A stretch of 64,000 nt of DNA from Escherichia phage PBECO4, in the sequence record KC295538. The stretch is one strand, 5' to 3'. Below the pieces are notes generated by a model, which worked only from the letters and a program-made list of their open reading frames with translations, was not told where the DNA came from and did no database searches. Position numbers and translations under genes: made by a program. Below are positions 14,237 to 40,432 of the stretch, in pieces (within the stretch, counting starts at the first letter, position 1; each line of letters starts with the position of its first letter).

Positions 14237-14464
14237 TCAATTTATCATTTGAAAAATAGTATACGAACCACTTCCATCTTTAAATACTTCTTGACTTTCA
14301 AACATAAACTTCTTTCCATCTATTTTTGCTGTTTGTGTTGTTACATCCAAATACAAATTGTAGATAGTGTCAGTTTTTGTGGATTTACATGTTGTTGATG
14401 CTTCAGTTTTTGCATTCACTGTTGTTGATAAACACATTAACAAAACTAACATTAACTTTTTCAT
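14237..14464 (-). CDS. small secreted protein (N-terminal signal peptide)
   Basis: MKKLMLVLLMCLSTTVNAKTEAS... Confidence 0.65.
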   Translation of the reverse strand: MKKLMLVLLMCLSTTVNAKTEASTTCKSTKTDTIYNLYLDVTTQTAKIDGKKFMFESQEVFKDGSGSYTIFQMIN

Positions 14465-14484
14465 TTTAATTAACCTCTTTTGTT

Positions 14485-15624
14485 TTACAAAATTACTTCA
14501 CCAAAAATACCATTGATATCACGTTCAATGATGTATTCACCTTCATGTTCAGCTAAGAACTTTTTAATGGCTTCGTTAACTTTAGGACGATGAATGTTGT
14601 TGAATGTTTCAGTGCAACCATCTCCCTTTTCATAATAACCTTTATTATATAGTTTACCACATAACGCAATTGTATGTATTATTATTTCCAATTCTCTAGC
14701 AAGTTTCCCACCCACATTCTTATGAAATAAAATGGAAATTTCATTACTCCAAAAATTATCTACTTTATATATTTTTTTATAAGATAAGTTTTGTGGACTT
14801 AATCTTGCTTTAATAGTTTTGTTTGTAATACCAGCTTTATCCGAATTTTTTGCATAATCATTGTGAATATAAAATCTTCCAGGCTTGGAAGTTTTAAATC
14901 CTTTTACTGCACACGTGGGACAACCAGAACCAGACAGATGTGAATTTGGTGTTTGTTGAAATTCACCATGTTCTTTGCATATTATAATAGAGGTTACTTG
15001 GTTGTTAATGTAGTCATATAAAGAATAATCATACTTATTTCCGTGTATAAGATGTGATTTTTTTATAAATTCACCTAAAGTTTGTTTTAAAGTTTGTTTC
15101 GTGCATTCTTGACAACCAATTTTACCAGTAGCTAAGTCAGTAATTGTGGGTTTTTTTATATCACCACAATCATTACATACTACTTCAATTTTAGTTCTAC
15201 TAGGAAGTGTAGAGTTAAACGAAGTTATTCCACTATAAGTAAATTTATCATAACCATATTTTTTGTTGATGACACTAATATGATTAATGGTGTAATATGG
15301 AATATTAATAATATTGTAAAAAATCTTCCCATTAAATCCCTGCCTAATAAAATTCGTGCAGGTGGCTCCAATAACTAACATACCATCGTTATTCACTACA
15401 AGTTTGGTTTTTGATTTAGATATATAATCTTGTGATCTATTGATATAGAATCCAAGAACTCTTGGATCATTTATTTCACCCATAATACTAATAGGATCTT
15501 GAGCAATGTTGGATTTTTTTACAAAATTTATATCTTCGGCTTTCATCCACTCAAAAAGCATTCCATGCTCTTCATAAAAATAAACTTTTTCACCATCTTC
15601 ATTAAAATAGTACTGTTCAAACAT
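14485..15624 (-). CDS. Cys/His-rich protein, possibly a zinc-binding nuclease (379 aa)
   Basis: CNDCG..GCQEC and ICKEHGEF...HLSGSGCPTC clusters; AAAGGAG SD. Confidence 0.5.
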   Translation of the reverse strand: MFEQYYFNEDGEKVYFYEEHGMLFEWMKAEDINFVKKSNIAQDPISIMGEINDPRVLGFYINRSQDYISKSKTKLVVNNDGMLVIGATCTNFIRQGFNGKIFYNIINIPYYTINHISVINKKYGYDKFTYSGITSFNSTLPSRTKIEVVCNDCGDIKKPTITDLATGKIGCQECTKQTLKQTLGEFIKKSHLIHGNKYDYSLYDYINNQVTSIIICKEHGEFQQTPNSHLSGSGCPTCAVKGFKTSKPGRFYIHNDYAKNSDKAGITNKTIKARLSPQNLSYKKIYKVDNFWSNEISILFHKNVGGKLARELEIIIHTIALCGKLYNKGYYEKGDGCTETFNNIHRPKVNEAIKKFLAEHEGEYIIERDINGIFGEVIL

Positions 15625-15853
15625 TACTTAAAACTCCTTTCCAGTACTGAACCCGTCCAGCACCATTAATCTTAGCTTGAATCTTATCTTTTTCGACAAG
15701 ACCTTCTTTGAAATCTATGGACGTATTATCGCACTTAATTACATCTAAGTCAAGTACTTCTTGTGTACTTAATGAAGTATTATCTGCAATTTGTTGTAAA
15801 GTAATTACATCAGTACCGAAGAATTCAGCTAATCGTATAAAAGATAGTTTCAT
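15617..15853 (-). CDS. hypothetical protein (78 aa)
   Basis: Track ORF with AGAGG SD; downstream of cassette promoter. Confidence 0.6.
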   Translation of the reverse strand: MKLSFIRLAEFFGTDVITLQQIADNTSLSTQEVLDLDVIKCDNTSIDFKEGLVEKDKIQAKINGAGRVQYWKGVLSNV

Positions 15854-15879
15854 TTGTTACCTCTTGTGTTGATGAAATA

Positions 15880-15912
15880 ATTATAGCAAAAAGGGCTGAC
15901 CGAAGTCAACCC
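15880..15912 (-). promoter_or_regulatory. terminator-promoter cassette (copy 2)
   Basis: gatgaaataattatagcaaaaagggctgaccgaagtcaaccc; -10 at 15885-15880, -35 at 15909-15904. Confidence 0.7.
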
Positions 15913-15918
15913 TTTATG

Positions 15919-16340: not shown

Positions 16341-16775
16341 TTAGATCATAGAACGATAATACTCAGGTAACTCAACATCAGTAAATTTATACCACTTAGG
16401 CTTCATCTGGAGCTTCTCAATCAAACGCTCACGAGAGGTTTTAATTTCTGATTCAGATGGTACGTAATCATTACAAAACTCAGCAGGGAAGCTGCTAATG
16501 TCGTTTACTTCAGTGTTTTGAATCTTCATACCACGACGCAAACATTCGTTGACAATATCGATATGACGCTTCTGTAAGTACAGCAACTTGTCGTAAAAGA
16601 ATGTCACATGACCTGAACCCAACAGATAAGTACTGTTAATTTTGAAATCACGTACACGCTTACGTGCTTGAACGTGTTTTTGTACAGCACCAAATACACG
16701 TGGGAGTTCACGATATTCAGCCATCAGGTGTTGGTCAGCAAGTTCTTTAACGTGTACTAAGTTAATGCGTGTCAT
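16341..16775 (-). CDS. denV: pyrimidine-dimer DNA glycosylase, T4 endonuclease V homologue
   Basis: [49 protein letters not shown] matches T4 DenV as I recall it, over the full 144 aa. Confidence 0.85.
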
Positions 16776-16803: not shown

Positions 16804-16836
16804 ATTATAGCAAAAAGGGCTGACCGAAGTCAACCC
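16804..16836 (-). promoter_or_regulatory. terminator-promoter cassette (copy 3), upstream of denV
   Basis: -10 at 16809-16804, hairpin 16817-16836, -35 at 16833-16828. Confidence 0.7.
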
Positions 16837-18949: not shown

Positions 18950-19318
18950 CTATCGATTCGGCATATTCTTTCGTAGTCGCAAGAGAAATTCAACCACTGA
19001 CCATGTTGTAATGAAGGCTATATAAGTTGCAAGGAATCCAGTAAGAATAAATGCAACCAGCGTACTACCATTTGGGGAATCAGTTTTAATGCCGATGACA
19101 CCATCGGCTACAGTGAAACATGTAGCCATTAATGTGTAACCTACGTACAACACAAAGAAAAACTCATTCTCCATTGAAGGATAGAAACGGTTAAACACTT
19201 TATAAAATTTAAAGTACAGTAGGATTATACCAACAAAGGCATAGAATGTAAACAGTGTTGTTATAATATATGAGATTAGGTTCAAATTATACATATCAAC
19301 GCTCCGGTAGATTATCAC
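18950..19318 (-). CDS. small integral membrane protein (family M)
   Basis: Hydrophobic 122-aa ORF ending ..RLRKNMPNR. Confidence 0.65.
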   Translation of the reverse strand: MIIYRSVDMYNLNLISYIITTLFTFYAFVGIILLYFKFYKVFNRFYPSMENEFFFVLYVGYTLMATCFTVADGVIGIKTDSPNGSTLVAFILTGFLATYIAFITTWSVVEFLLRLRKNMPNR

Positions 19319-19643
19319 GTAATGTTTTAATTCGATGATACATTTTCATACCAATATTACCAAAGATACCATATCCAAGTACTAAAATGTATGCAATAAG
19401 CATAGTAATAATTACTATAGTGCCAAAACTATAATGTACACTACTGATACCCATTGTAGTTTCAACGATTATTTGAGAAACTGAAAGAATCAAAAGTACA
19501 ACTACAATTGGATGATTTGGGTACATTCGGTTGAACAACGTTTTGTACTTAAAGAAGCACAGTACTCCACCGAATAAGAAGTAAACAATGTAAATGCAAG
19601 CAACAGCATAGGCAAACATGTTAGTGTAATAAATCATTACCAA
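19296..19643 (-). CDS. small integral membrane protein (family M)
   Basis: Hydrophobic 115-aa ORF ending ..LRDNLPER. Confidence 0.65.
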   Translation of the reverse strand: MVMIYYTNMFAYAVACIYIVYFLFGGVLCFFKYKTLFNRMYPNHPIVVVLLILSVSQIIVETTMGISSVHYSFGTIVIITMLIAYILVLGYGIFGNIGMKMYHRIKTLRDNLPER

Positions 19644-19646
19644 TCC

Positions 19647-19985
19647 TTACTTTTCAGGGATATTAGAACGCCATATATCAATGCGATGAACTAGTCCAAA
19701 GAACAACCATACTGGAACGGCAGCTATCATAACAACAAATGAAAACCCAGTCAAGACCGATACCAGATTTAATTCATCAGTACTATACCCACATATCAGT
19801 ACTTCTAATATTCCCCACGTACATGCACAAAACATCAAGAATGAAATTGGGGCATCATAGTAGATACGTTCATATAAAGTAGTGTATCGGAAGAATGCAA
19901 TAATGTAGCAAAACATATAATACACCCAAACCAAAGATACTACATAAAATGATACTTTGTTTATTAATTCAAAATATTGTTCCAT
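19647..19985 (-). CDS. small integral membrane protein (family M)
   Basis: Hydrophobic 112-aa ORF ending ..WRSNIPEK. Confidence 0.65.
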   Translation of the reverse strand: MEQYFELINKVSFYVVSLVWVYYMFCYIIAFFRYTTLYERIYYDAPISFLMFCACTWGILEVLICGYSTDELNLVSVLTGFSFVVMIAAVPVWLFFGLVHRIDIWRSNIPEK

Positions 19986-20331: not shown

Positions 20332-20973
20332 TCAATAAAAAACTGGATCTTCTTCAGTAATTGGTATTTCTCTACGTACATCACACGAAAGAGGATCAGT
20401 AATGAATACATTCCCATCTTTATCCATCATCACATTACTTGAATGAATGTCTGGTACAAAACGCCCGTGAAACTCTTTCATGATGTTAGCAGCGACCGTC
20501 GCAATAGCAATCTCTTCAGAATTTCCACGCATATCATTCACTGAAGTAGCGTACTGACCAGCATGTGCATAAGAATATAAATCTCCAATTTTAGTACTAA
20601 CAAAGTCATCATAATTATTTTTTTGTTTAATTATAGGATAGTACTTGTCCATCTCATACCATCCAAAGTTTCCTTGTTCGTTTGCACTGTAGATCACTGG
20701 AAGAAACTTGGTTCCTGCGTTTTCAATGCAGTACTTTGCATAAGCACGAAAACCATCCCAGCGTGAAGTGGTTACTTTAAATGCACGCCCAGGATAGTTT
20801 TTATGTTCAACTACTACAGAGTACATCCCCATTCCAAGCAAAGTAAGTCCAGCAGCTTTAACTTGTGGAAAGATTACGCGTTCAGCATAAGGAATATCAA
20901 ACTCCATCGCACAACGAGTTTTTGATGGACGCAAAATGTCAATTAAAGTTTTGAATATTTCTTGCTTAGTCAT
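20332..20973 (-). CDS. protein-kinase-like fold protein (start moved to ATG 20973 with GAGGA SD)
   Basis: C-terminal DIHSSNVMMDKDGNVFITDP resembles the HxDxxxxN...D catalytic motif of atypical kinases; track start 21006 overlaps the promoter -10. Confidence 0.55.
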   Translation of the reverse strand: MTKQEIFKTLIDILRPSKTRCAMEFDIPYAERVIFPQVKAAGLTLLGMGMYSVVVEHKNYPGRAFKVTTSRWDGFRAYAKYCIENAGTKFLPVIYSANEQGNFGWYEMDKYYPIIKQKNNYDDFVSTKIGDLYSYAHAGQYATSVNDMRGNSEEIAIATVAANIMKEFHGRFVPDIHSSNVMMDKDGNVFITDPLSCDVRREIPITEEDPVFY

Positions 20974-21001
20974 TACTTTATCCTCTGTAGTTAATATCAA
21001 C

Positions 21002-21034
21002 ATCATAACAAAAAAGGCTGACCGAAGTCAACCC
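21002..21034 (-). promoter_or_regulatory. terminator-promoter cassette (copy 4; -10 TATGAT)
   Basis: Hairpin ggctgaccgaagtcaacc 21016-21033; -35 TTGACT inside the stem. Confidence 0.6.
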
Positions 21035-21809: not shown

Positions 21810-22061
21810 TCACCGGAACTCTTTTTCTATTCCCATTACATCAGTCTTACGCTCAGATAGTATACCTGAAGTATATGAATCTTTGTTGTCAAACGCATTA
21901 AATCCAATAGTTCTGTCGGTGTCGTGTATTATTCCTTTTGTGTATGAGGTAGTATAGAACTCCCCATTTCTGAAATCCTGCCTTGCTACTGAGCAATGAT
22001 AATCTGCACCATAAGCAGTACTGGAAAATAATACAATTCCAAATATAATATATTTTTTCAT
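21810..22061 (-). CDS. small secreted protein (signal peptide)
   Basis: MKKYIIFGIVLFSSTAYGADY... Confidence 0.65.
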   Translation of the reverse strand: MKKYIIFGIVLFSSTAYGADYHCSVARQDFRNGEFYTTSYTKGIIHDTDRTIGFNAFDNKDSYTSGILSERKTDVMGIEKEFR

Positions 22062-22090: not shown

Positions 22091-22122
22091 TATTTACAAA
22101 AAAAGGCTGACCGAAGTCAACC
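22091..22122 (-). promoter_or_regulatory. terminator-promoter cassette (copy 5; weak -10)
   Basis: Hairpin 22105-22122 with TTGACT in stem. Confidence 0.5.
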
Positions 22123-23668: not shown

Positions 23669-23699
23669 AGTATAAAGAAAAGGCTGACCGAAGTCAACC
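23669..23699 (-). promoter_or_regulatory. terminator-promoter cassette (copy 6; TTGACT-17-TATACT)
   Basis: Hairpin 23682-23699; -10 at 23674-23669. Confidence 0.65.
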
Positions 23700-23850: not shown

Positions 23851-23883
23851 ATGATACAACAAAGGGCTGACCTTAGTCAACCC
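23851..23883 (-). promoter_or_regulatory. terminator-promoter cassette (copy 7; variant loop CTTA)
   Basis: gggctgaccttagtcaaccc 23864-23883. Confidence 0.55.
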
Positions 23884-24862: not shown

Positions 24863-25442
24863 TATTCATTAAACACAATTTAGGTTTTATAGCATTCAAC
24901 ACCCATATGCATTCTTTGTAAGTAGCTATTATATCATCTAAATGCTCAGTTACAATGCTTTCTTGAAAATATTCTTCATCATTGAGCTTTGCTAATTTAG
25001 TAACATCACACGTAGGCACTATAGGTCTGGATTGTACACCCATTCCATTATTGATATTAGTGAAATGTACAAAATGGTACTTCACTACACCTTTATCTAG
25101 ATTTATTATACATGACAAATTTTCCAACTCAGTTAGTTTTTTATTACAAGTAACATTAATGAAACCAGCATTATAGGCTCTATAATCATCTACTGATATC
25201 TCAAAATCATTACGTTCAAATATAAGTGAAATGAGTTGGTCCAGTGGTTTGACATTCATATATTTTAATGAATTTACGTATGATACTTCAATCTTAGATG
25301 AAATTATCTTTTTACTAAGTGCAGTTAAATCTTTGTTAGATTTAACTGTTAAAACAATAGGTTTAAACCTAGAACTTTTGTTCTTTTTTGATACTTTAAA
25401 ACGACCTTTACGATTCATAATTTCCTCAATTAATAATTTCAC
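24846..25442 (-). CDS. hypothetical protein (198 aa)
   Basis: Track ORF. Confidence 0.65.
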   Translation of the reverse strand: MKLLIEEIMNRKGRFKVSKKNKSSRFKPIVLTVKSNKDLTALSKKIISSKIEVSYVNSLKYMNVKPLDQLISLIFERNDFEISVDDYRAYNAGFINVTCNKKLTELENLSCIINLDKGVVKYHFVHFTNINNGMGVQSRPIVPTCDVTKLAKLNDEEYFQESIVTEHLDDIIATYKECIWVLNAIKPKLCLMNIVRDL

Positions 25443-25647
25443 ATTTAACGTGTGGTTTATATAGCATAATTAACCCATTTTTAAGTACAATGATTGTTGC
25501 TCTGTTAGTAATCGAAACGTTTTTAATTATACTTTTTTTATATGTTTCAACATATTTCTCTTCATAATTTATACATTTAACATATTCTTTTTGTTTAGCA
25601 CTTACAACAGTACTGAATAATATCAGTACAAGTACTATATATTTCAT
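25426..25647 (-). CDS. small secreted protein (signal peptide)
   Basis: MKYIVLVLILFSTVVSAKQ... Confidence 0.6.
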   Translation of the reverse strand: MKYIVLVLILFSTVVSAKQKEYVKCINYEEKYVETYKKSIIKNVSITNRATIIVLKNGLIMLYKPHVKCEIIN

Positions 25648-27092: not shown

Positions 27093-27124
27093 ATTATAAC
27101 AAAAAAGGCTGACCGAAGTCAACC
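27093..27124 (-). promoter_or_regulatory. terminator-promoter cassette (copy 8; TTGACT-18-TATAAT)
   Basis: Hairpin 27107-27124; -10 at 27098-27093. Confidence 0.7.
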
Positions 27125-27364
27125 TTTGTTTTGAAGTTCTTGAACTAATTGTCGTACTTCGTTAATATTTTTACACTGCTTTACAGTGAAGTAATCATAC
27201 TTACGACCATAGGTTCTTGGGTCATCACCTTCCATATACTGCTGCACATCAAAGATTTGTAAGTAGGGATGCTGCATAACACGAATATTATCACTTTGAT
27301 AAATCAACATAATATCAATCCTTATATTTACACAAGCCACCAAAACTAGTTTCTTTAGCACCAC
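27119..27364 (-). CDS. hypothetical protein (81 aa)
   Basis: Track ORF; stop lies inside cassette hairpin. Confidence 0.55.
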   Translation of the reverse strand: MVLKKLVLVACVNIRIDIMLIYQSDNIRVMQHPYLQIFDVQQYMEGDDPRTYGRKYDYFTVKQCKNINEVRQLVQELQNKG

Positions 27365-27665
27365 GACGCATCATAACTAATTTAGCATATTGTGTGCCAT
27401 TACTATCTTCATATACATCTACTTCAATAAACGCTAAGAAGTTAGGGTCTGTGTCGTTAGAAAACTCAGTGAAGCTAATGTCGCCTACTGTATGCTCTTT
27501 AACAAACGTATATGATTGTCCATCAATATATACAATATCTCGATCGTCACTATCACCTTGATAGATATGTTTAATATTACCATCTGTACAAACTAAACCT
27601 TCCAATGGTTCAGCATATGACAATCCACACATTAACATACATACAAAAAATAAAATAATTTTCAT
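27315..27665 (-). CDS. small secreted protein (signal peptide)
   Basis: MKIILFFVCMLMCGLSYAEP... Confidence 0.6.
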   Translation of the reverse strand: MKIILFFVCMLMCGLSYAEPLEGLVCTDGNIKHIYQGDSDDRDIVYIDGQSYTFVKEHTVGDISFTEFSNDTDPNFLAFIEVDVYEDSNGTQYAKLVMMRRGAKETSFGGLCKYKD

Positions 27666-27667: not shown

Positions 27668-28045
27668 TTATTTTCCTCCAACGTTAAGTGATTTCTTGTA
27701 CTGATATTCTTTATAAGTACTATACCATATATCACCAACGTAAATCAAGTACCACGTAGCAGGATAAAGAGCCAATCCAGTACTGATGTATACGAACTTT
27801 TGGTCAAGGACATCAAATACATACAGAAGGAAAGTTACTCCCATAATGCAAGAACAAATTAACCACAAGTTATAAGCAATCGAATCGCAAGCAAAAATAG
27901 AATCAAGCTTAGAAATTAGGACATATTTGTTTGTTAAAATGAAATGAATTACTGCAACTAAACAATATCCTGCCATAAAAATAGAAATTAAAAAAGACAG
28001 AATAATTGGAATATTCAACAACAAAAGTAAAATAGTGTTTACCAT
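27668..28045 (-). CDS. small integral membrane protein
   Basis: 125-aa hydrophobic ORF. Confidence 0.6.
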   Translation of the reverse strand: MVNTILLLLLNIPIILSFLISIFMAGYCLVAVIHFILTNKYVLISKLDSIFACDSIAYNLWLICSCIMGVTFLLYVFDVLDQKFVYISTGLALYPATWYLIYVGDIWYSTYKEYQYKKSLNVGGK

Positions 28046-28055
28046 TTTTTAAGTC

Positions 28056-28415
28056 CTATATTTCACAGTGTAAGTTCAATTTATCTATATCTAGGTCACG
28101 GCGTACCGATGAGTCCAAGTAAATTACTATATAGATATCACCATTACCAGTTCTTGGGTCTACAATTAATATTACGTTTGCTAATGTACCAGAATCATCT
28201 CTATAAGTCGAGATTTTTTTATTACCGATAATACTTTCTACTTTAAAACGATAAATCACACCATCAACAACTATATTTTTACCATTTCTAGGGTCGTTAG
28301 TCAATACATGCCACGTTCCCTTAGTACTACGACAATATGTTTCTGCTGCTGCACCATAACTAAAACATGAAAATAATGCACACACAAGTGCTATTAATTT
28401 TATATAACTCTTCAT
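28056..28415 (-). CDS. small secreted protein (signal peptide)
   Basis: MKSYIKLIALVCALFSCFSYGAAAE... Confidence 0.6.
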   Translation of the reverse strand: MKSYIKLIALVCALFSCFSYGAAAETYCRSTKGTWHVLTNDPRNGKNIVVDGVIYRFKVESIIGNKKISTYRDDSGTLANVILIVDPRTGNGDIYIVIYLDSSVRRDLDIDKLNLHCEI

Positions 28416-28493: not shown

Positions 28494-28820
28494 TTACATC
28501 TTATTCGTGAACTTGAATTTGATAATATCAATCCAAATTTTAACATTTCCTGCAAATAGTGCTTTGATTAGCCACATAATTGCAACAAAGTTCTCAACTA
28601 AATCCAAAGTTTTAACTACTGCACCGAGTGGGAAGATAAAACTCAAAACCCATACAATTACTGAAACCACAACGACTGCATAGAAAATACGCACAATCGG
28701 TGAATCAAGCATAAACAACTCAGAGAACTCTTTTTTATCATTATCATCAGTAATAAAGCATTCGTAAACCAGAAGCCAAATCAGAATTAAAGACGGAATT
28801 GAAATTAGTACTGATAGCAT
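28494..28820 (-). CDS. small integral membrane protein
   Basis: 108-aa hydrophobic ORF. Confidence 0.6.
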   Translation of the reverse strand: MLSVLISIPSLILIWLLVYECFITDDNDKKEFSELFMLDSPIVRIFYAVVVVSVIVWVLSFIFPLGAVVKTLDLVENFVAIMWLIKALFAGNVKIWIDIIKFKFTNKM

Positions 28821-28877
28821 ATTTTTTACCTCAAGTTTAAGTGTTAAGTTTCAGACTACAGGAACCATTATACAGTA

Positions 28878-29120
28878 CTACGAACGTTTGTCAACATTTG
28901 TTTCTTCAATAAGCATAAGATAACTTAACACGAAGAGTAATACCGAAATAATATCAATAACCGTAAAGCTCACGGGAATAATAATAGACACTAGAACGAG
29001 TGCCACGTTTAGCAAGAATACAGTAGTGAGATCTACCATCGTTCGTCTAGTGGCTAATGCCACTAGTGTAGGATAGAACATAAACAATAGTGCAACAACA
29101 AAACTTAGTACTAGATACAT
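28878..29120 (-). CDS. small integral membrane protein
   Basis: 80-aa hydrophobic ORF. Confidence 0.55.
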   Translation of the reverse strand: MYLVLSFVVALLFMFYPTLVALATRRTMVDLTTVFLLNVALVLVSIIIPVSFTVIDIISVLLFVLSYLMLIEETNVDKRS

Positions 29121-30232: not shown

Positions 30233-30235
30233 TTA

Positions 30236-30457
30236 TCATTCCTCATCACTTTCAGTTAGTATAATGCTATGTACAGTTTCCACATAGCGGTGTGTTTTGG
30301 GTGTGTTATACTTTGTAATTTCATCAAACAATTTAAACAGTGCATCTACTTCACTAAGAGCACGAATGAATACATCCATCTTGGTGACTACTCTGGAAAA
30401 CCCGCGTATGTTATTAAATTCAGAGACGTGTTCATACACAACATAGTATCTATTCAT
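30236..30457 (-). CDS. hypothetical protein (73 aa)
   Basis: Track ORF. Confidence 0.55.
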   Translation of the reverse strand: MNRYYVVYEHVSEFNNIRGFSRVVTKMDVFIRALSEVDALFKLFDEITKYNTPKTHRYVETVHSIILTESDEE

Positions 30458-30972
30458 ATATTAAAAAGTTCCATGAATTCATTGAATAAAGAAGTTCTAA
30501 TGCACATAACAAATTCAAAATCAACATCTATGGTGTCAAGTAGTTTGAACAACTTTGGTACTAATGGATCATTCACCTCAAAGTTATGAATCAAACTTTG
30601 TTGAAACACATTTTCTTCAGTACTATAATCAATAACAAAATATTCAGCAATACCAGGTGGTGTGTAAACATCATATAAAATATGGCGGTGATGATTTGTT
30701 TTAGAACTAGGGGAATATATAAGTTCTATTTCATAAGATTTATCAGCACTGCGTGCGTAACAAACAATATCAGTACTCGTTATTTCTGAACCATCACTTC
30801 TCTCTGAAAAACAAACATCAGCATAGCGTTTTCCAGAGAGATTCAAAAGGTCATGAGTTGTTTTACCATAACAGAAATCAGTTTCAATGCGTATCACATC
30901 TTGATATTCAATTGGTCTTGTATCGCGGCGTTCACGATTAAACACTAATTTCAACAACTCATTAATATCCAT
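30454..30972 (-). CDS. hypothetical protein with EExFQxS motif (family FQ)
   Basis: STEENVFQQSLIHNFEVNDP near C-terminus. Confidence 0.65.
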   Translation of the reverse strand: MDINELLKLVFNRERRDTRPIEYQDVIRIETDFCYGKTTHDLLNLSGKRYADVCFSERSDGSEITSTDIVCYARSADKSYEIELIYSPSSKTNHHRHILYDVYTPPGIAEYFVIDYSTEENVFQQSLIHNFEVNDPLVPKLFKLLDTIDVDFEFVMCIRTSLFNEFMELFNI

Positions 30973-31229
30973 TATTTCGCCTCGATAACCTTAAGGTTAA
31001 CAAAATCACCTTTTACTTTCATGCATTTGAATTCAGTGCGAGTTTCATCCCCACTATCGCGAGGCCAATGAGTGGCAGAGTAGCACTGGTCTGGTGTTTT
31101 ATATACACCTTCACCAATAGTACGAGTGATTTCACCATTGGTGAGAACTACTGCGAGATATAAAGTAAACATGATATTCGCCTTAGAATAATTTATTAAT
31201 AATAATAGCACCCAACGCAAGAACTGCAA
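30972..31229 (-). CDS. hypothetical protein with hydrophobic N-terminus (85 aa)
   Basis: Track ORF. Confidence 0.55.
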   Translation of the reverse strand: MQFLRWVLLLLINYSKANIMFTLYLAVVLTNGEITRTIGEGVYKTPDQCYSATHWPRDSGDETRTEFKCMKVKGDFVNLKVIEAK

Positions 31230-31325
31230 TAATTACAGATACCCACATTACTGCATTCACTGTACCAGTAAGTTCTTTATCAAACTCCCTGCACTTCTTG
31301 CGGTAATCTTCCCACTCTTTGTTAT

Positions 31326-31541
31326 TCACACTGCCACTCCTAATAGGTCGGTAGCTTTCTTGAGTACTACGTCAATGGTTTCCAGTACTGCACCTTTGTG
31401 TTCAATTGATACAATATTATTATAAGTATCAAGGTCCAAGTACTCCATATATTCAGTTTTGAATACACGAACATCAGTACTAGTGATTTTAATATCACAA
31501 CCTTTATCCCAAATAACCTGCATCATTTCATTGGTAGTCAT
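31326..31541 (-). CDS. hypothetical protein (71 aa)
   Basis: Track ORF. Confidence 0.55.
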   Translation of the reverse strand: MTTNEMMQVIWDKGCDIKITSTDVRVFKTEYMEYLDLDTYNNIVSIEHKGAVLETIDVVLKKATDLLGVAV

Positions 31542-31816
31542 TATTCAACCTTATCATAAACAAGTTTGTGTGTGCTTAGTACTTTGTTGTGATGTCCAGG
31601 GCATTCATATACATACAATCGCTCCTGTCGTTTTTCCCAACCACCACAGATACGACCTGATTGTGTACATACCTCATACTCGTTAATAAAAGACTTACCT
31701 GTGAATGTACAATCCTGACGAACTAAGTCTTTTGCACTAAACCTGCCGTCATCATTACATGCTGTAAGAAACATTGTACAGAATACAAAGACAACTGTCA
31801 ATAGTTTTTTAATCAT
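31541..31816 (-). CDS. putative lipoprotein (lipobox LTAC)
   Basis: MIKKLLTVVFVFCTMFLTACNDD. Confidence 0.6.
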   Translation of the reverse strand: MIKKLLTVVFVFCTMFLTACNDDGRFSAKDLVRQDCTFTGKSFINEYEVCTQSGRICGGWEKRQERLYVYECPGHHNKVLSTHKLVYDKVE

Positions 31817-32181
31817 TGAACATCACCCCAACGGAAGCCATTCATATAATTCAAATTCACCTCAACGAGTTCATGTGTTTTTGTACACCAAATTGATAGA
31901 GTTTTTGTAACATCACCAGGTGAACTTTCATACTTCACACAATACCCTTCAATGCGAAGAGTTTTGTTAGTCCAATGTTGCCACTCAATCCAAATTTCAT
32001 TAGGATAATAAACCATATCTTCCTTGAACCTATGGTATTGATCCATCGGTAAGTGACCTTCAACTTCAATTACTTCAGCACTTCGAACAAGTTTGTCAAG
32101 CTTGTACTTTATCTCAGCAAGATATTCTTCATCATTCAGACGAGTTAATAAATCTGCTGCACGTGTTGTATCAAGGCTCAT
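31813..32181 (-). CDS. hypothetical protein (122 aa)
   Basis: Track ORF. Confidence 0.6.
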   Translation of the reverse strand: MSLDTTRAADLLTRLNDEEYLAEIKYKLDKLVRSAEVIEVEGHLPMDQYHRFKEDMVYYPNEIWIEWQHWTNKTLRIEGYCVKYESSPGDVTKTLSIWCTKTHELVEVNLNYMNGFRWGDVQ

Positions 32182-32183
32182 TG

Positions 32184-32429
32184 TTATTCTCCATGAATTA
32201 CGGAAGTGTTGATTCGTGTTTTACCGCTAGTGTATCCAGTACTTGTATTTGCATTAGGACAGTACACAGTGTATAAAGTCGCACCAGCACCATCTTGTTG
32301 CATACGATAAATCTTACACCCTGCTTCTTTTAATTCAGCAGGTAGAACAAAATCACTTGTACGTTCTTTGGTAGAAGCATCACATGCAGTGAGTAGAAAT
32401 GCGACGAGTACTGCTACGATATATTTCAT
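32184..32429 (-). CDS. putative lipoprotein (lipobox LTAC)
   Basis: MKYIVAVLVAFLLTACDAS. Confidence 0.6.
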   Translation of the reverse strand: MKYIVAVLVAFLLTACDASTKERTSDFVLPAELKEAGCKIYRMQQDGAGATLYTVYCPNANTSTGYTSGKTRINTSVIHGE

Positions 32430-32737
32430 TAACGAACCTCCACTTCTTGAGAAAGAGCATGAGTCAGTGCATTTGAATTCGAACTATTCATTTCACGCTG
32501 ACATACAAACATAATGGCATCTTGTACTGAACCTGCGATTTCATACTCACGACCTTCTGGATCAGTTACCAGATGTTCAACGATACAACCACCACGCAGT
32601 ACAGAAGCACCAGTACTTACACTAATTCTGTAACCTAAGAAATCAAACTGCATACATGCGTCAGTAGGTTTCATCCAATAACCGCTGTTTTTATTCAAAT
32701 CGATGATTACAAAACCTTGAGTGTTAGTTTGAAACAT
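32429..32737 (-). CDS. hypothetical protein (102 aa)
   Basis: Track ORF. Confidence 0.6.
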   Translation of the reverse strand: MFQTNTQGFVIIDLNKNSGYWMKPTDACMQFDFLGYRISVSTGASVLRGGCIVEHLVTDPEGREYEIAGSVQDAIMFVCQREMNSSNSNALTHALSQEVEVR

Positions 32738-32831
32738 AGTTAATTCCTCATTTAATTTAAAAGGGCGGGAACGCAGTGACGAGTACGATTATGCTGTCTT
32801 TCCTTTCACTGCATTCCCTTTTATATAAAAC

Positions 32832-32860
32832 ATAATACTGCTATTATTCAGTACTGTCAA
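32832..32860 (-). promoter_or_regulatory. sigma-70-like promoter TTGACA-17-TATTAT
   Basis: Minus strand TTGACAgtactgaataatagcagTATTAT. Confidence 0.6.
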
Positions 32861-33150
32861 TCGATATAAGTACCTTTTTTAACATCACAGACTTCTTCCA
32901 TCCAATGTGGATTTTCGTTTTTATCAGTGAAGATTTGTTCTGCTTCTTCTTTTGTTTCAGCTAGGACAATACGATCCCCTTCATCCAAATCACGGATACG
33001 ATACACTTTCAGTTCTTGTTTCTTCTCAAGAATATTACACAGTTCACGTGCTTTTTCTTCATCGCACTTCCCTTCATTAGCATAAAACCAAATTGCTTTT
33101 TTAATAAGGTCACGTTCTTCTTTAGAAAAAGACATAATATTTCCTATCAT
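32857..33150 (-). CDS. hypothetical protein (97 aa)
   Basis: Track ORF. Confidence 0.6.
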   Translation of the reverse strand: MIGNIMSFSKEERDLIKKAIWFYANEGKCDEEKARELCNILEKKQELKVYRIRDLDEGDRIVLAETKEEAEQIFTDKNENPHWMEEVCDVKKGTYID

Positions 33151-34503: not shown

Positions 34504-34734
34504 TTATATTATTCCTTCTTTGTTACAACCTATAATTATTTTTGTAACTTCGATAACTCGTACCAAATGATATCCGTGAAAAAAGTTAAAACCATACATT
34601 TGTGCTAATGCATCGGCTTCAGATTTTGCACGGATACATGATAGATATAATTCTCGTATATCACCATCTAATGATGCTTGTTTCTCGTCATTGATAACAA
34701 TAGCACGAATCTCAAAACGAACACCATAACTCAT
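34504..34734 (-). CDS. hypothetical protein (76 aa)
   Basis: Track ORF. Confidence 0.55.
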   Translation of the reverse strand: MSYGVRFEIRAIVINDEKQASLDGDIRELYLSCIRAKSEADALAQMYGFNFFHGYHLVRVIEVTKIIIGCNKEGII

Positions 34735-34940
34735 TTAGTTTGACCCACAATAAGTTTCTCTTTAGTATTACTATTGTAACACCACATTTGTTCTTTACTA
34801 ACTGTAATCCAAATATCTTTGTTTACTTGTTCGTATGTACTATCACGTAATGCAATGCATTGATTCATGGAATTCATTGGGGTTATTTGTACACCGGAAT
34901 TAACAGAAAAAGCTATTACTAAAAAGATTACTGAATTCAT
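34731..34940 (-). CDS. small secreted protein (signal peptide)
   Basis: MNSVIFLVIAFSVNSGVQ...; first gene after promoter at 35006-35034. Confidence 0.55.
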   Translation of the reverse strand: MNSVIFLVIAFSVNSGVQITPMNSMNQCIALRDSTYEQVNKDIWITVSKEQMWCYNSNTKEKLIVGQTK

Positions 34941-35005
34941 TGGATATTCCTTAATGGTTAATCATCCATCTCTTCGAGATGTCTGTTCGCTTCTAATACT
35001 ACGTA

Positions 35006-35034
35006 TTCTACGCGAATGATTAATAACTGTCAAG
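35006..35034 (-). promoter_or_regulatory. consensus sigma-70 promoter TTGACA-17-TAGAAT
   Basis: Minus strand TTGACAgttattaatcattcgcgTAGAAT. Confidence 0.7.
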
Positions 35035-35560
35035 GACTTTTAATATTGACGGGATTTGAGGAAGGGATTTTTCTTCCCCCCCACAAGGAGGGAAATTTGA
35101 CGCTGATGGTATCAGAGCTATTGCATTGAAGATTACTCATAACGAGTGCGAAAGCGGGTCATCCTGTTTCTCTCTACTTCAGTTTCATATGACGGTCTAC
35201 ACTTTTAAACATAGTGTATCTTCATTAAGTATCTATGCAATCAAATACTTAATGTGAGTACTCAAATTCTGGACGCAACTTTCCTGTACAAAATTTGATA
35301 ACTCTCCCTTAGATAATTCGTAAGGTGTTATCCTTATATGTCTATCAAGGAACCACCAGCTATCCTAACGTGGTTCTTTATACAGCCGCATTGCCGTGAG
35401 GGGTTCAAACTATGCCCACATCTAACGGGTTTCTTTTGCTGTTCGCACTGTCGGACTGCTCAACTGCCCTCTACGTTTTCGAGTGGATCAGGTACATGAA
35501 TATCATGCCAACAGAATTGTACAAGATAATTATATCACAAACTTTTACTTCATCCCATAA

Positions 35561-35590
35561 AAAAAGGTTGGCTTATGCCAACCTTTTTTC
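35561..35590 (-). terminator. intrinsic terminator hairpin (AGGTTGGC-loop-GCCAACCT) with flanking A/T runs
   Basis: aaaaaaggttggcttatgccaacctttttt immediately 3' of the sigma-like gene. Confidence 0.7.
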
Positions 35591-35591
35591 T

Positions 35592-36557
35592 TTAGAAATC
35601 TTCGTATTCGTACCCTTTTGCAAGTACTAGCTTCTTAAGCTTTTGCATAGCTTCACTGTACTTTCGGTGTATTGATGAACGGGATTTAACATATTTTCCA
35701 TTATCATCAACAAAACCATTATCAGCAATCTCACGAAGCGTTTCAGGTTCATATTCACCTAGACCATGAACACGCTGGATAATCTCACGTTCTTTAGTAC
35801 TCAATTCGTTGGTCAGTTCATTGATAGCATAACGCAAAGGTGCACGGATACTATCAACATTGAGGTTAAAATCAGAAGCAGGTGAATGAATAATGTCACC
35901 TAATGTACCATCTGTAACACCGTCTAATGGTGCATCCAGCGAAGTGTATTCGCTTTGAAATAACAAACAATTATTAACATGCTGAATCTCAATCCCAGTA
36001 CCCTCTGAGATTATTTCAGGAGTTGGGCGAACACCATGTTTACGCATATATTCCTGACAGAATCTTTTTACTTTGATCTTATGAACACTCATATAACGTG
36101 GGAAGTGTACCATATAGTTAGCGTCAGAACTTTCGTTATAGACTGTCATGTAAATACTAGAAGAAGCATAGGTAATGAACTTAACATTCTTATTAAGATC
36201 AAAGGTTTTTAGTGCTCTCATGAACCCCTCAACACCATATGAAATCTTATCTTCAAATGGGATATAACAAGTACATTTACTTGCTACATCAATAATCAGT
36301 CCATAATTGTAACGAACTAACAGTTCAGTGTTTTTCTTTACATTGATACCAGCTTGAATATCACGAATTAGATCTTCATTGGAAACATTTGGTGGTCGCT
36401 TAAGTGTAATATTATATTTGAAACTGCTTTGTACTTTACCTTCATTTTCATCTTTATCTTCAACGAAATCTAAGGCTTCTAGTGTGTTGACTTCTTCATT
36501 AGCAAAACATTCATCCAGAACTTCTTCGGCAATTGTATTTAAATCAAGCTTTTTCAC
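35592..36557 (-). CDS. sigma-70-family RNA polymerase sigma factor-like protein (GTG start)
   Basis: C-terminal LSTKEREIIQRVHGLG..EPETLREIADNG..SRSSIHRKYSEAMQKLKK resembles region 4; AGGAG SD 6 nt before GTG. Confidence 0.65.
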   Translation of the reverse strand: MKKLDLNTIAEEVLDECFANEEVNTLEALDFVEDKDENEGKVQSSFKYNITLKRPPNVSNEDLIRDIQAGINVKKNTELLVRYNYGLIIDVASKCTCYIPFEDKISYGVEGFMRALKTFDLNKNVKFITYASSSIYMTVYNESSDANYMVHFPRYMSVHKIKVKRFCQEYMRKHGVRPTPEIISEGTGIEIQHVNNCLLFQSEYTSLDAPLDGVTDGTLGDIIHSPASDFNLNVDSIRAPLRYAINELTNELSTKEREIIQRVHGLGEYEPETLREIADNGFVDDNGKYVKSRSSIHRKYSEAMQKLKKLVLAKGYEYEDF

Positions 36558-36578: not shown

Positions 36579-37076
36579 TCAAAATCGATATACATTAATA
36601 TTATCATCTGTGAAGCAATCATGGTTGTGCACATCCATGAAAGTACTAAACACTTTATCATATAAAGTTGTATGTTCTTCATGAATAGCAGCATCTAGCA
36701 TGTATTCTCCACCACTTCCCATAAAGAAAGTGTAGTCTTCATGTAGATATTCAAGTTTTTTAATAAACTTTCCTTTAGTTAAAATCATATGAATAACATA
36801 ATCTTTAGAAAGAAGCACACAATGGCAACTTAACTTTCTGTCAGGTATAACTGGTACTTTATTAATTAACCAATCCAGTACTTTATCAATTTCACTTACT
36901 ACCCCACTAGCACTGAATAAACGGTCATGTACATATAAAGTTTTTTGATTAACAACTCCATATTGATATTTTGGTCTTAGTGGGAAAAAACCAAATAAGT
37001 TTCGTGGTATAGTTGACGTAACTCTAGAATCGGTAATCAATAAATTTAATCGTTTATCAATATAAACAGTTGTCAT
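36579..37076 (-). CDS. hypothetical protein (165 aa)
   Basis: Track ORF. Confidence 0.65.
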   Translation of the reverse strand: MTTVYIDKRLNLLITDSRVTSTIPRNLFGFFPLRPKYQYGVVNQKTLYVHDRLFSASGVVSEIDKVLDWLINKVPVIPDRKLSCHCVLLSKDYVIHMILTKGKFIKKLEYLHEDYTFFMGSGGEYMLDAAIHEEHTTLYDKVFSTFMDVHNHDCFTDDNINVYRF

Positions 37077-37502: not shown

Positions 37503-37763
37503 TTAGAATTTCTCCGAAATTACTAGAGTGTCATCATAATCTTCTGCAATATCATGAAGAACTTTTAAGTTACTTTCACCAGAAACGCTTTTTACTTCGT
37601 TCAAAAGATAGTTTAGATCAACTTTAGTTACTTTTTCTGAATCAAACACACAGAAAGTTAATTCAGCGTTTGGACAGATCTTCTTCAGATTATCAGCAAC
37701 AACTTGTTTGAAGTTGAAAGATGGGGAAGCAACCAGGTTAACTGCAACGAGAATAGATTTCAT
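37503..37763 (-). CDS. hypothetical protein (86 aa)
   Basis: Track ORF. Confidence 0.6.
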   Translation of the reverse strand: MKSILVAVNLVASPSFNFKQVVADNLKKICPNAELTFCVFDSEKVTKVDLNYLLNEVKSVSGESNLKVLHDIAEDYDDTLVISEKF

Positions 37764-38148: not shown

Positions 38149-38574
38149 TCAAGTATTTTTAGTACCTTCTTCTGCCATTTTTGTGATATACCAATTAAGT
38201 ACTGATTTGTGTACCATAAAAAATGTGAATGCAAATATAGCAATAGCTGCTGATGTAACACTATTAGATAATGACCCAAGTTGGATGTTAGTACCTAAAA
38301 TAACAATAAATGGATACAACACAATCAATCTACTGTAAGGTTCGTCTCCAGTATCACGGAGAAATCCAAGCCTTTCATGATCAGTATCCATAGTGACAAT
38401 TGGACAGAACATAAGTGCAGACATAAGAGCAATACCAATTTGTGCTACATTGGAAATTGTAAACCACAAAGGATTTAAACCATATGAAATATTATTTTCT
38501 GTACAGTAGTAACCAAACGAATTGAATGCACAAACTAAAAATACAAAAATACAAATCTTATTATAGCCTCTCAT
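38149..38574 (-). CDS. integral membrane protein (141 aa)
   Basis: Multiple hydrophobic segments. Confidence 0.65.
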   Translation of the reverse strand: MRGYNKICIFVFLVCAFNSFGYYCTENNISYGLNPLWFTISNVAQIGIALMSALMFCPIVTMDTDHERLGFLRDTGDEPYSRLIVLYPFIVILGTNIQLGSLSNSVTSAAIAIFAFTFFMVHKSVLNWYITKMAEEGTKNT

Positions 38575-38993
38575 TTGTTTAGCTCCGTTAATTTTCGTTT
38601 AACTTCTAGATCATGAAACTCATCGGCATATGAGTTTTGAACAGTTCTGATGTATTCCAACATAACAAACATAGTTCCACATACCCATAGATATGTATAG
38701 TAATCAAATACAAATGCATATAACATACACGGTACTAAAATGAAAGTGTAAACAAAACTATATCGTGTAGTTCCAAATACTTTCAGATATAACAAACGTC
38801 GATAATCACGGGCAAATGTATTGATGCACACTGAAAATGTAATTAATGTATACCATGAAATACCCTGAATTAAACCTGAAACATTTAAAAGTTTATGTTC
38901 ATCGGAAAACCCCAGTGCATTTAGCACTGGAGCCATAACCCAACCAATAATACTAATAAGAAAAAGATATTTTGCATTACTTAGTGTGAACAT
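38571..38993 (-). CDS. integral membrane protein (140 aa)
   Basis: Multiple hydrophobic segments. Confidence 0.65.
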   Translation of the reverse strand: MFTLSNAKYLFLISIIGWVMAPVLNALGFSDEHKLLNVSGLIQGISWYTLITFSVCINTFARDYRRLLYLKVFGTTRYSFVYTFILVPCMLYAFVFDYYTYLWVCGTMFVMLEYIRTVQNSYADEFHDLEVKRKLTELNK

Positions 38994-38994
38994 A

Positions 38995-39453
38995 TTACTT
39001 TAGTCCCCATGCTTTTTTGATTGCATCAACAGAGTTTTGGTCCACTACTTCCTTTTTTTCTGATGTAGTTTGAAGTTTATTAATTACATATTCCTTTGCA
39101 TCTTTTTCTATCATAAATTTACCATCAACCAACACACCAAAAACTTTAGAATTTCGGGCTGGATATGGATTAATTTCATCAAGAGTACGGACTTTCTTAT
39201 CAACTATAATGGCTTTGATGTAACCAGTTTCAAGTACTGTTGTAATCACAGTCATTTCAATTGCAACTGGTGAATCTTCCCAATACGCAATCCATTTAGT
39301 AAAGCTACGATCAGGTGAATCTTTTGTGCATTTTAATTTAATTGCACTATTAAAAATGTATTGTTTAAAATTGTCATCGACAACTTCACTAATACTAAAA
39401 TAACCTTCACGCTCTTCAACATTACGTTTGAAATTTGTAGCTAATACATCCAT
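38995..39453 (-). CDS. hypothetical protein (152 aa)
   Basis: Track ORF. Confidence 0.65.
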   Translation of the reverse strand: MDVLATNFKRNVEEREGYFSISEVVDDNFKQYIFNSAIKLKCTKDSPDRSFTKWIAYWEDSPVAIEMTVITTVLETGYIKAIIVDKKVRTLDEINPYPARNSKVFGVLVDGKFMIEKDAKEYVINKLQTTSEKKEVVDQNSVDAIKKAWGLK

Positions 39454-39494
39454 TTTCCATCCCCCTTGGGTTACTTGGTGTGTTAATTATAATA

Positions 39495-39971
39495 CTAAGA
39501 ATCTTTGTTGTCAAACTTTTCCCTCAAATATTTTTCTATTAATCTAATTTGTGTTGGTGGTAAGATAAAGTAATCGTACATAGATTTACTACCATGTATC
39601 GAACAACCTACACTAATACTATAATCATATGGATATAAGTATATTGGATCTTGTATATCAGGTATGAAAACTATTCTTGATATATTACCATTTCCTATTC
39701 TTACTTGGACGTTATCATTATTATTAAGATAATTTCTTATACAGTACTCAATTATACCATTTACTTTAGAATCATAACCATAATTTTTATATTCAGGAAA
39801 AATGAAATAGCGTTCATGGTATAGATATGAGCATAGTAATGCTGGGAAAAAATTCCAAAAACCTTCATGCTTTGCAATTGTTTGTGCATATTTAAAATGA
39901 TTAGCATTACTAAAAATATTATACAGCACAAAATACACAAATGGACTTACCAATAACACTATTGTTAACAT
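39495..39971 (-). CDS. membrane-anchored protein (158 aa)
   Basis: Hydrophobic N-terminus MLTIVLLVSPFVYFVLYNIF. Confidence 0.6.
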   Translation of the reverse strand: MLTIVLLVSPFVYFVLYNIFSNANHFKYAQTIAKHEGFWNFFPALLCSYLYHERYFIFPEYKNYGYDSKVNGIIEYCIRNYLNNNDNVQVRIGNGNISRIVFIPDIQDPIYLYPYDYSISVGCSIHGSKSMYDYFILPPTQIRLIEKYLREKFDNKDS

Positions 39972-40432
39972 CAGAAGCCTCTGTATTTTTCATACACTTC
40001 AACGCATTCCATGATTTTGTCATCGTCCATCATATCATAGCCTTGTAGAAATTCTTCTTTATCAACCTTCCCTGCCATCATATCTGTGTCAGAAATTCTG
40101 GAGTCATAGAAGAAATACATATCTTTATAGTACTGGTTTTTGTGCTGCTCAATCTTTACTTTAGCATATCCAGCACAAAATGAAGGAGATTTAACAACTT
40201 CCCATTTATGCTTCTTGATGGGTTTATCATTAGCATGTTTTTCCCTGTATGTCTGACGATAACGTTCACGCATTTCAGGCATGTATTCTTCAGCAGTACG
40301 TTTAGGGGGAGTTTTACCAGTCCCAATAGTTTTAATAGTTTGACGTTGTTCTTCTGCGTGTACTGGGGAAATAAAACATGATGTACCAAACAGTACTGCT
40401 ACGATAACCATAAAATTCTTAAACATAATCAA
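39971..40432 (-). CDS. secreted protein (signal peptide, 153 aa)
   Basis: MIMFKNFMVIVAVLFGTSCFISPVHAEEQ. Confidence 0.6.
   Translation of the reverse strand: MIMFKNFMVIVAVLFGTSCFISPVHAEEQRQTIKTIGTGKTPPKRTAEEYMPEMRERYRQTYREKHANDKPIKKHKWEVVKSPSFCAGYAKVKIEQHKNQYYKDMYFFYDSRISDTDMMAGKVDKEEFLQGYDMMDDDKIMECVEVYEKYRGF

Follow-up and report, generated by a model that had tools for sequence, protein, structure and literature searches.

Between positions 14237 and 40432 of a 64,000-nucleotide (nt) stretch of Escherichia phage PBECO4 (KC295538), here called the window, lie nine small open reading frames (ORFs) which a preliminary description took for a periplasm-directed set with envelope-level functions. 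The locus therefore raises two questions, namely whether these proteins are exported and what they would do once outside the cytoplasm. The ORFs are named by the coordinate under which they were originally listed (14237, 21810, 25426, 27315, 28056, 31541, 32184, 34731, and 39971), which is the low, stop-codon end. All nine were found, every one on the minus strand, so that the sequence for each leader peptide lies at the higher coordinate. Export of eight of the proteins, six as signal peptidase I (SPase I) substrates and two as lipobox-containing lipoproteins, is predicted with high confidence. The set is best explained, with confidence a little above even, as an early accessory-gene cluster of Asteriusvirus whose products are delivered to the host cell envelope. 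By analogy with known phage systems a role in exclusion or competition may be proposed, although only tentatively.

The identity of the phage also settles the nature of the host. Over positions 25000-33000 the window shares 99.7% identity with Salmonella phage SD-6_S16 and 97-99% with Escherichia phages slurp01, SP27, phAPEC6, 121Q, and G17. Judged from this identity, the source is an Asteriusvirus, a 121Q/PBECO4-like, RaK2-related jumbo myovirus of about 350 kb which infects E. coli or Salmonella. A Gram-negative host had been deduced from the signal peptides and lipoboxes. The conclusion is right because of sequence identity to known Salmonella and E. coli phages, but it does not follow from the export signals, since Gram-positive bacteria use both.

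Export signals were identified with a rule-based scan. A protein passed if its n-region had a net positive charge, its hydrophobic core was free of charged residues, a lipobox or small -3/-1 residues followed, and it contained no other transmembrane (TM) segment. These home-made rules were checked on 11 control sequences: nine of nine known E. coli signal peptides were called, and LacZ and RecA were rejected. The scan recovered eight of the nine ORFs. Six of them (14237, 21810, 25426, 27315, 28056, and 39971) have the charged n-region, the h-region of about 8-15 residues, and the small -3/-1 residues of SPase I substrates. In 31541 and 32184 a positive n-region is followed by an h-region ending in a lipobox ([LVI][ASTVI][GAS]C), as in substrates of signal peptidase II (SPase II), and the L-T-A-C motif originally noted in both was read correctly (FLTA/C and LLTA/C). 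The ninth, 34731, had likewise been credited with a classical signal peptide; this did not hold, as there is no K or R before its hydrophobic stretch and no good -3/-1 cleavage site. Shine-Dalgarno sequences or translational coupling were found at the predicted starts.

Strict matches in the window numbered nine, a count which includes one false positive. Residue-shuffled proteins gave a mean of 0.25 matches (maximum of 3 in 1000 shuffles), and neither reversed sequences nor 172 internal-Met pseudo-N-termini gave any. The matches are confined to the region described, with 9/56 ORFs inside 14237-40432 vs 0/67 outside (Fisher p = 6e-4). Alternative start codons of every other ORF were also scanned, and no hidden signal peptides appeared. 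The false positive, 37503-37763, passed the rules and was rejected on inspection of its ortholog in Klebsiella phage Muenster, which starts MKDILIAVDGS and has no hydrophobic leader; this start is, we presume, reminiscent of universal-stress-protein N-termini. Three further ORFs, 23708 (37 amino acids (aa), one TM segment), 38149, and 38571 (both multi-TM), were set aside as membrane proteins rather than secreted ones.

Further support came from conservation. Syntenic regions were compared in G17 (97% identical), fEgEco12 and vB_Ec-M-J (85%), JNE01 (74%), and Muenster (Alcyoneusvirus). In orthologs at 29-62% identity the signal peptides are altered in sequence but keep their properties, and the -3/-1 sites persist. 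Signal peptides and lipoboxes are retained in orthologs whose mature parts are down to 29-40% identical. All mature-domain cysteines are invariant across the compared orthologs. Moreover, an even, non-zero number of cysteines (two or four, the lipid-modified Cys excluded) was counted in 7/9 mature domains vs 19/63 small cytosolic ORFs (p = 0.009), and invariant, even-numbered cysteines are the pattern expected of periplasmic disulfide proteins. Together with the canonical signals, these features uphold the description of a periplasm-directed set for eight of the nine, with 34731 atypical.

The clustering of the set was assessed in a whole relative genome, assembled as ECO103 4-12-1 (OR844650.1; 98.9% identical, unannotated, 576 ORFs). 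In this genome 14 of the 576 ORFs pass the scan, one of them a false positive, and 8/14 fall in a single 25-kb bin, which corresponds to window 21.8-40.4 kb and to about 7% of the genome (p = 1.6e-5). The same bin holds 13/55 of the genome's TM-protein ORFs, and envelope-directed ORFs make up 37% of its content vs 12% overall (p = 2e-7). Outside the cluster, ECO103 encodes a 77-aa small lipoprotein (...IILCG/CAPK) at 226656-226889 and a 99-aa secreted protein at 315720-316019.

Transcription signals suggest when the genes would be expressed. Allowing no more than a single mismatch, TTGACA-N16-18-TATAAT was found 33 times on the minus strand of 14090-62913, nine of these matches being perfect, vs once on the plus strand; shuffles gave about five sigma-70 promoter matches on both strands together. 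In addition, the hairpin GGTTGAC-TTCG-GTCAGCC followed by a T-run occurs in eight minus-strand copies, where none is expected by chance. Its stem holds a -35 box (TTGACT), with TATAAT 18 nt downstream at five copies, as if terminator and promoter were combined in one element. Counterparts of the 27.1-kb copy are annotated as a 'redundant repeat' in Pectobacterium phage CBB and as a 'terminator' in Cronobacter phage GAP32. The promoters and hairpins thus suggest a series of short transcription units served by the RNA polymerase of the host, i.e. early genes. Of the small proteins of this region, gp043c-gp060c in phAPEC6, none was present in the virion proteome of that phage, and this includes gp047c, the ortholog of 27315. 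A 'structural protein' label on the CRJP21 ortholog of 27315 (L018 1316-1666) is thus unsupported by phAPEC6 virion mass spectrometry.

From this, the following course of events can be proposed. Host RNA polymerase would transcribe the genes from strong sigma-70 promoters. Six of the proteins would be exported through Sec and cleaved by SPase I, while in 31541 and 32184 the lipobox Cys would be lipid-modified and the leader removed by SPase II. Most of the exported proteins would then form one or two disulfides in the oxidising periplasm, dependent on DsbA. Their genes are interleaved with those for some 13-17 predicted small multi-pass inner-membrane proteins, and the products would together alter the envelope of the infected cell, such that competing or superinfecting phages are shut out and wasteful adsorption is avoided, as with T4 Imm and Spackle, T5 Llp, Cor, and Rtp45. 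Envelope-level functions, as originally proposed for the set, are a reasonable expectation. The features discussed are collected in Table 1.

Table 1. Exported proteins, associated genes, and transcription signals in the window (a slash marks the predicted cleavage site; the description applies to the predicted product).
Positions	Strand	Feature	Description
14104-14121, 15894-15911, 16818-16835, 21016-21033, 22105-22122, 23682-23699, 23865-23882, 27107-27124	minus	Hairpin copies	Putative combined terminator and promoter
14237..14464	minus	75-aa secreted protein	N-terminus MKKLMLVLLMCLSTTVNA/KTE, cut after VNA (SPase I type); variable accessory gene
21810..22061	minus	83-aa secreted protein	MKKYIIFGIVLFSSTAYG/ADYHC; orphan family phrog_28901
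25426..25647	minus	73-aa secreted protein	MKYIVLVLILFSTVVSA/KQK; N- and C-terminal Cys pair in mature part; phrog_31284
27104..27127	minus	Intrinsic terminator hairpin	Embedded -35 box; ends cassette transcription unit; terminator annotated there in G17
27315..27665	minus	116-aa secreted protein	MKIILFFVCMLMCGLSYA/EPL; last barrel of cassette, paralogous to 28056; periplasmic beta-barrel of eight strands predicted
27668..28045	minus	125-aa membrane protein	Two TM segments (TM scan); between the barrel genes, gaps of 2 nt to 27315 and 10 nt to 28056
28056..28415	minus	119-aa secreted protein	MKSYIKLIALVCALFSCFSYG(AA)/AET; predicted eight-stranded beta-barrel; invariant C28 (beta1) and C117 (beta8)
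28494..28820	minus	108-aa membrane protein	Three TM segments (TM scan); first gene of cassette
28867..28894	minus	Sigma-70 promoter	Perfect consensus (TTGACA, 16 nt, TATAAT); 47 nt upstream of cassette
30972..31172	minus	66-aa protein	Uncharged hydrophobic N-terminus MFTLYLAVVLTNG...; two invariant Cys; start as annotated in G17
31541..31816	minus	91-aa lipoprotein	Lipobox ...FLTA/CNDD; Asn at +2; four further invariant Cys
32184..32429	minus	81-aa lipoprotein	Lipobox ...LLTA/CDAS; Asp at +2; two invariant Cys
34731..34940	minus	69-aa protein	Hydrophobic uncharged N-terminus MNSVIFLVIAFSVNSG...; two invariant Cys
39971..40432	minus	151/153-aa secreted protein	Cleavage after VHA; (MI)MFKNFMVIVAVLFGTSCFISPVHA/EEQ; two invariant Cys

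The paralogous secreted proteins 27315 and 28056 are encoded in a four-gene cassette, where a gene for a small membrane protein comes before each of theirs. The transcription unit runs from the promoter at 28894-28867 through 28494, 28056, 27668, 27315, and a 64-aa ORF to the terminator at 27127-27104. Its gene order is conserved across genera, in JNE01 (L004 16507-15328) and in Muenster (L005 17411-15954), with 24-41% identity to Muenster, and the conservation of gene and position extends to 27668 in both. Orthologs of 27315 keep the signal peptide and both cysteines in JNE01 (57%) and Muenster (40%). The barrel family is confined to RaK2-like phages: a first search gave 20 clusters, and a second, through 1.84 billion proteins, gave 12 representatives. 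Eight of the nine distant representatives retrieved have a signal peptide and both terminal cysteines, the remaining one (P0115) being truncated at the N-terminus. Apart from the N-terminal Cys missing in P0115, the pair is invariant in these representatives and in 19 aligned sequences.

In the AF2 model of 28056 (pLDDT 75) eight beta-strands are predicted, with C28 in strand 26-30 and C117 in strand 112-118. A fold of about 100 residues with eight antiparallel strands is the one shared by MliC, PliC, and ACP, and the position of the cysteines in 28056 corresponds to their beta1-beta8 pair, from which a bond would be expected here as well. The fold match is unspecific, as many eight-stranded barrels score alike. 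No match of the family to MliC was found in Pfam, and its profile found nothing in a sequence search of the PDB. ACP and MliC/PliC have the beta1-beta8 disulfide in common, and ACP is a lysozyme inhibitor even though it lacks the motifs of MliC (PMC5507604). Given the size, the predicted fold, and the shared cysteine pair, the barrels could therefore block a tail lysozyme. If an activity like that of Spackle is to be sought in another, modelled, fold, these two proteins are the most concrete candidates. A more far-reaching proposal would make the cassette a new two-component superinfection-exclusion system of RaK2-like jumbo phages, in which the barrels inhibit the tail lysozyme of incoming phages, and the 32184 family a common inner-membrane-anchored block to DNA entry in many virulent phages that are not related to one another. 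The barrels would then perhaps be held or regulated by their partner membrane proteins, and could represent an independently arisen beta-barrel counterpart of T4 Spackle. We hold this combined proposal to be distinctly unlikely.

The two lipoproteins differ widely in distribution. The 31541 family was found in 40 phage records, all from RaK2-like jumbo phages. Its JNE01 ortholog is 36% identical and has the lipobox LTG/C followed by DED (Asp at +2). Searched as a single sequence against the PDB, 31541 matched nothing relevant (E up to 10). The 32184 family was found in 570 phage records, which include Felixounavirus, Vequintavirinae, Eneladusvirus, and 114-kb Vibrio phages, and in other phages its homologs lie among early and replication genes, beside those for DNA polymerase, ligase, or helicase. 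The PBECO4 protein matches phrog_902 over residues 1-73 (E 1.5e-13) and shares the family pattern of a lipobox, two cysteines, and LP.E...C.IY...VVRCPN...GK, in which the VVRCPN motif is conserved. The lipobox Cys is invariant in 37 aligned members; the JNE01 ortholog has LSA/C.

A profile search with 32184 returned 87 clusters, of which 85/87 carry the precomputed label PF16225. In the Pfam-A copy used, which may lack the model, neither 32184 nor five homologs matched PF16225 at E up to 10. Elsewhere, an 86-aa coliphage protein was named 'DUF4884 domain-containing protein' by NCBI (PMC12210894), and from this name and the accession numbering PF16225 is probably DUF4884. The family profile also failed to match any relevant chain of the PDB (E up to 10). 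Neither 32184 nor 31541 thus showed similarity to the solved chain of T5 Llp, provided that the published FhuA-Llp entry is contained in the PDB copy. Most family members, 32184 included, have Asp at +2. In E. coli lipoproteins Asp at this position normally causes inner-membrane retention through Lol avoidance, implying that 32184 would be kept in the inner membrane. Orthologs of 31541 and 32184 are missing from the fetched Muenster syntenic region even though their neighbours have orthologs there, and the two genes therefore look like lineage-specific additions.

The remaining secreted proteins belong to orphan families or are rarer still. ORF 14237 has the Shine-Dalgarno sequence GAGG upstream and a single Cys in the mature part; tblastn detected it in 121Q and UB only, and it is absent from G17. 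A weak likeness to the N-terminal half of the 27315/28056 family was seen (hhalign E 4e-4, probability 35%). Orthologs of 21810 in fEgEco12 and vB_Ec-M-J are 67-69% identical and retain both the signal peptide (MFKYVLFSLVLFTDIVYS/TEYQC) and the Cys, and one of the terminator/promoter hairpins (22105-22122) lies directly upstream of the gene. The JNE01 ortholog of 25426 is only 29% identical and carries a different canonical signal peptide (MKKIALGLAFLALSASSFA/GQ), with both cysteines kept. For 39971, an orphan of phrog_36332, the true start is likely the ATG at 40426, two codons past the TTG, which is served by a GAGG Shine-Dalgarno sequence. The gene overlaps at its stop codon with the beginning of 39495-39971, which encodes a membrane protein; its JNE01 ortholog (62% identity) has the signal peptide ...SNPVYA/S, and no relative was found in the PDB sequence search.

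Two proteins are less typical. In 34731 the N-terminal hydrophobic stretch and both cysteines are kept in four orthologs, and the Muenster ortholog, CPT_Muenster_492, is annotated as 'putative secreted protein' from InterPro SignalP regions; a promoter with 11/12 matches lies at 35005-35033. Its export is plausible but atypical, and the N-terminus may instead be an uncleaved membrane anchor. Beyond the nine, 30972 has orthologs in JNE01 and Muenster with 62% identity. It also fails the strict signal-peptide rules and is a possible, weaker candidate for export.

Several of these genes carry automated labels in the GenBank records of relatives. In fEgEco12 the orthologs of 21810, 31541, and 32184 are all labelled 'lytic conversion lipoprotein'; 21810 has no lipobox, so the label is wrong for its ortholog. 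The 32184 ortholog of vB_Ec-M-J is labelled 'Cor superinfection exclusion protein', a name based on the weak match to Cor discussed below, and two additional genes of that phage bear 'Immunity to superinfection' labels which were not reproduced with PHROGs. In phAPEC6 (MK817115.1; L019 2046-2495, 5541-5813, and 6181-6429) the orthologs of 28056, 31541, and 32184 were left unannotated. A term search of the papers on fEgEco12 and Sharanji found nothing on signal peptides, lipoproteins, or exclusion.

Some neighbouring features of the window may be recorded here. From about 10 kb to 64 kb nearly all genes are on the minus strand. Genes for small membrane proteins (104-141 aa, mostly three predicted TM segments) form two tandem minus-strand arrays, one of six genes at 10786-13225 and one of three genes at 18950-19985, with paralogy visible by BLAST within the second; similar arrays occur in JNE01. 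Recognisable early genes are scattered among the exported set at 35592-36557, 36579-37076, 16341-16775, and 20332-21006; by the annotation of relatives they encode an RpoD-like sigma factor, an HslV-like protease subunit, a T4 DenV-like endonuclease V, and a protein kinase. Between the terminator of the sigma-factor gene (about 35555-35582) and the promoter at 35005-35033 lie 650 bp (34941-35591) with no minus-strand ORF; this segment had no Rfam match above threshold, and its folding energy is ordinary (z = -1.2). On the plus strand, 88-10100 holds a run of paralogs, seven to nine in number, whose products are about 300-430 aa long and in many cases begin MLPF(A/P/V/G)R. By gene numbering and matching sizes, these probably encode the 'DNA condensation proteins' of phAPEC6 virions (gp003-gp010). 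A minus-strand tRNA cluster at 47837-52112 comprises Thr, Asn, Met, Ser, Ser, and Gly species (ARAGORN), and Rfam adds a borderline seventh tRNA at 50838-50916.

How far does the evidence carry beyond export? Several observations weigh against an exclusion role for the set. Searches of Pfam, NCBIfam, and PADLOC with the nine proteins returned nothing meaningful, weak matches to TrbK, LvhB7, Lysis_col, and LPAM_1 having been discarded as lipoprotein leaders only. PHROGs gave orphan or unknown families only, besides a weak match of 32184 to Cor (phrog_1119; E 0.0079, 17.6 bits). That match covers only residues 1-48, the signal peptide included, and Cor membership was rejected for this reason. 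No sequence link was found from any member of the set to a characterised exclusion or lysis protein. When the barrel family was aligned with E. coli MliC (sequence checked against PDB 2f09), the hhalign probability was 0.4%. The SxSGAxY and YxxxTKG motifs are absent from the family or unconserved; a YxxxTKG-like YCRSTKG at the N-terminus of mature 28056 was dismissed, as orthologs do not conserve it. For 32184, the Asp at +2 counts against receptor masking at the outer membrane of the Llp/Cor type, and its AF2 model is poor (pLDDT 63) with no fold match. Finally, the early timing of the genes is a prediction from promoter sequences.

The same evidence of early expression and envelope targeting would also suit a part in host takeover or counter-defence, in which the proteins neutralise membrane-associated abortive-infection or other defence proteins, change transport or the envelope stress responses, or remodel the periplasm to suit the long infection cycle of a jumbo phage. 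Several of the families are clade-specific, and genes come and go (14237; 31541 and 32184), an accessory pattern typical of an arms race. However, no likeness to known anti-defence proteins and no functional match in PADLOC or PHROGs were found, and the present data do not separate such a part from superinfection exclusion. We regard it as unlikely as the main function of the set.

Alternatively, the set could control lysis, with its members acting as antiholin-like periplasmic sensors (as T4 RI), as spanin subunits of the small outer-membrane lipoprotein type, or as inhibitors restraining the muralytic enzymes of the phage itself until lysis. RI and the o-spanins are typically small proteins of this sort, periplasmic or lipid-anchored and with conserved cysteines, and the predicted barrel fold, which resembles that of peptidoglycan-hydrolase inhibitors, could equally act on the phage's own endolysin. 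Yet the genes stand behind sigma-70 consensus promoters among small early-type genes and do not adjoin an endolysin or holin gene; neither is annotated in this region of G17, fEgEco12, or vB_Ec-M-J. The spanin reading is rejected because the lipoprotein genes have no i-spanin neighbour: the upstream genes 32429-32737 and 31813-32181 encode no TM segment, and no adjacent or embedding i-spanin-like gene was found. The Asp at +2 of 32184 points to the inner membrane, and another small lipoprotein gene lies elsewhere, that at 226656-226889 of ECO103, though its neighbours are not i-spanin-like. A lysis role is accordingly improbable.

That the N-termini are uncleaved anchors or chance hydrophobic stretches of an AT-rich genome, leaving the proteins bitopic or not exported, is very improbable for the set and a possible reading for 34731 and 30972 only: these two lack n-region charge and a good cleavage site, the predictor was home-made with few controls, and the Muenster annotation (TMHMM) lists the 27315 ortholog as a one-TM-domain membrane protein and does not flag the 28056 ortholog as secreted, but TMHMM is known to call signal peptides TM helices, and the shuffles, the -3/-1 sites that persist in diverged signal peptides, the invariant lipoboxes, and the even-numbered, invariant Cys pairs all speak for cleaved, periplasmic proteins.

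An early accessory-gene cluster delivering its products to the host envelope thus remains the preferred explanation. The advance is modest: the set is a well-supported instance of a gene set expected in large lytic phages, and the new leads are the cassette of PliC/ACP-like barrels and the widespread lipoprotein family with Asp at +2. In large lytic phages many early genes reshape the infected cell, and most have no assigned function. By concentrating most of the exported proteins, the region provides a short candidate list for superinfection exclusion, receptor masking, and control of cell-wall enzymes, and the candidates come from jumbo coliphages that are considered for therapy. If the barrels do inhibit lysozymes, or the lipoprotein does block entry, they could be reused as tools, and the interference between phages in cocktails would become easier to explain. 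There is also a gain for annotation, as several of the genes are unannotated or mislabelled in GenBank relatives.

Comparison with known systems shows where the set conforms and where it departs. ORF 32184 shares the lipobox, the two cysteines, and the family pattern of DUF4884/PF16225/phrog_902, a membership which explains no mechanism. Llp of T5, Cor of phi80, T1, and N15, and Rtp45 are small lipoproteins (6-8 kDa mature) which are expressed early, stabilised by disulfides, and active on the periplasmic side (PMC12685063). ORFs 31541 and 32184 are likewise predicted to be small phage lipoproteins, here known from sequence. They differ in that the PBECO4 genes lie in the early region and not beside receptor-binding or tail(-fibre) genes, and in that the Asp at +2 of 32184 implies inner-membrane retention, in contrast to action at the outer membrane.

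T4 Imm is a small membrane protein. Its partner in the comparison, T4 Spackle (gp61.3), is an early protein with a cleaved periplasmic targeting signal and a disulfide, which inhibits the tail lysozyme gp5 in the periplasm (PMC7677548). The PBECO4 set resembles these two in design, since in it, too, a large lytic coliphage combines small membrane proteins with secreted proteins of predicted disulfide content, all encoded behind putative early promoters. No sequence similarity to Spackle or Imm was found, there being no annotated PHROG match. Spackle folds into an alpha-helical bundle, and for 27315 and 28056 all-beta barrels are predicted. In this respect the barrels come closer to MliC, PliC, ACP, and PhiA, from which they differ in turn in being phage-encoded, duplicated, and accompanied in each case by a small membrane protein encoded immediately before them.

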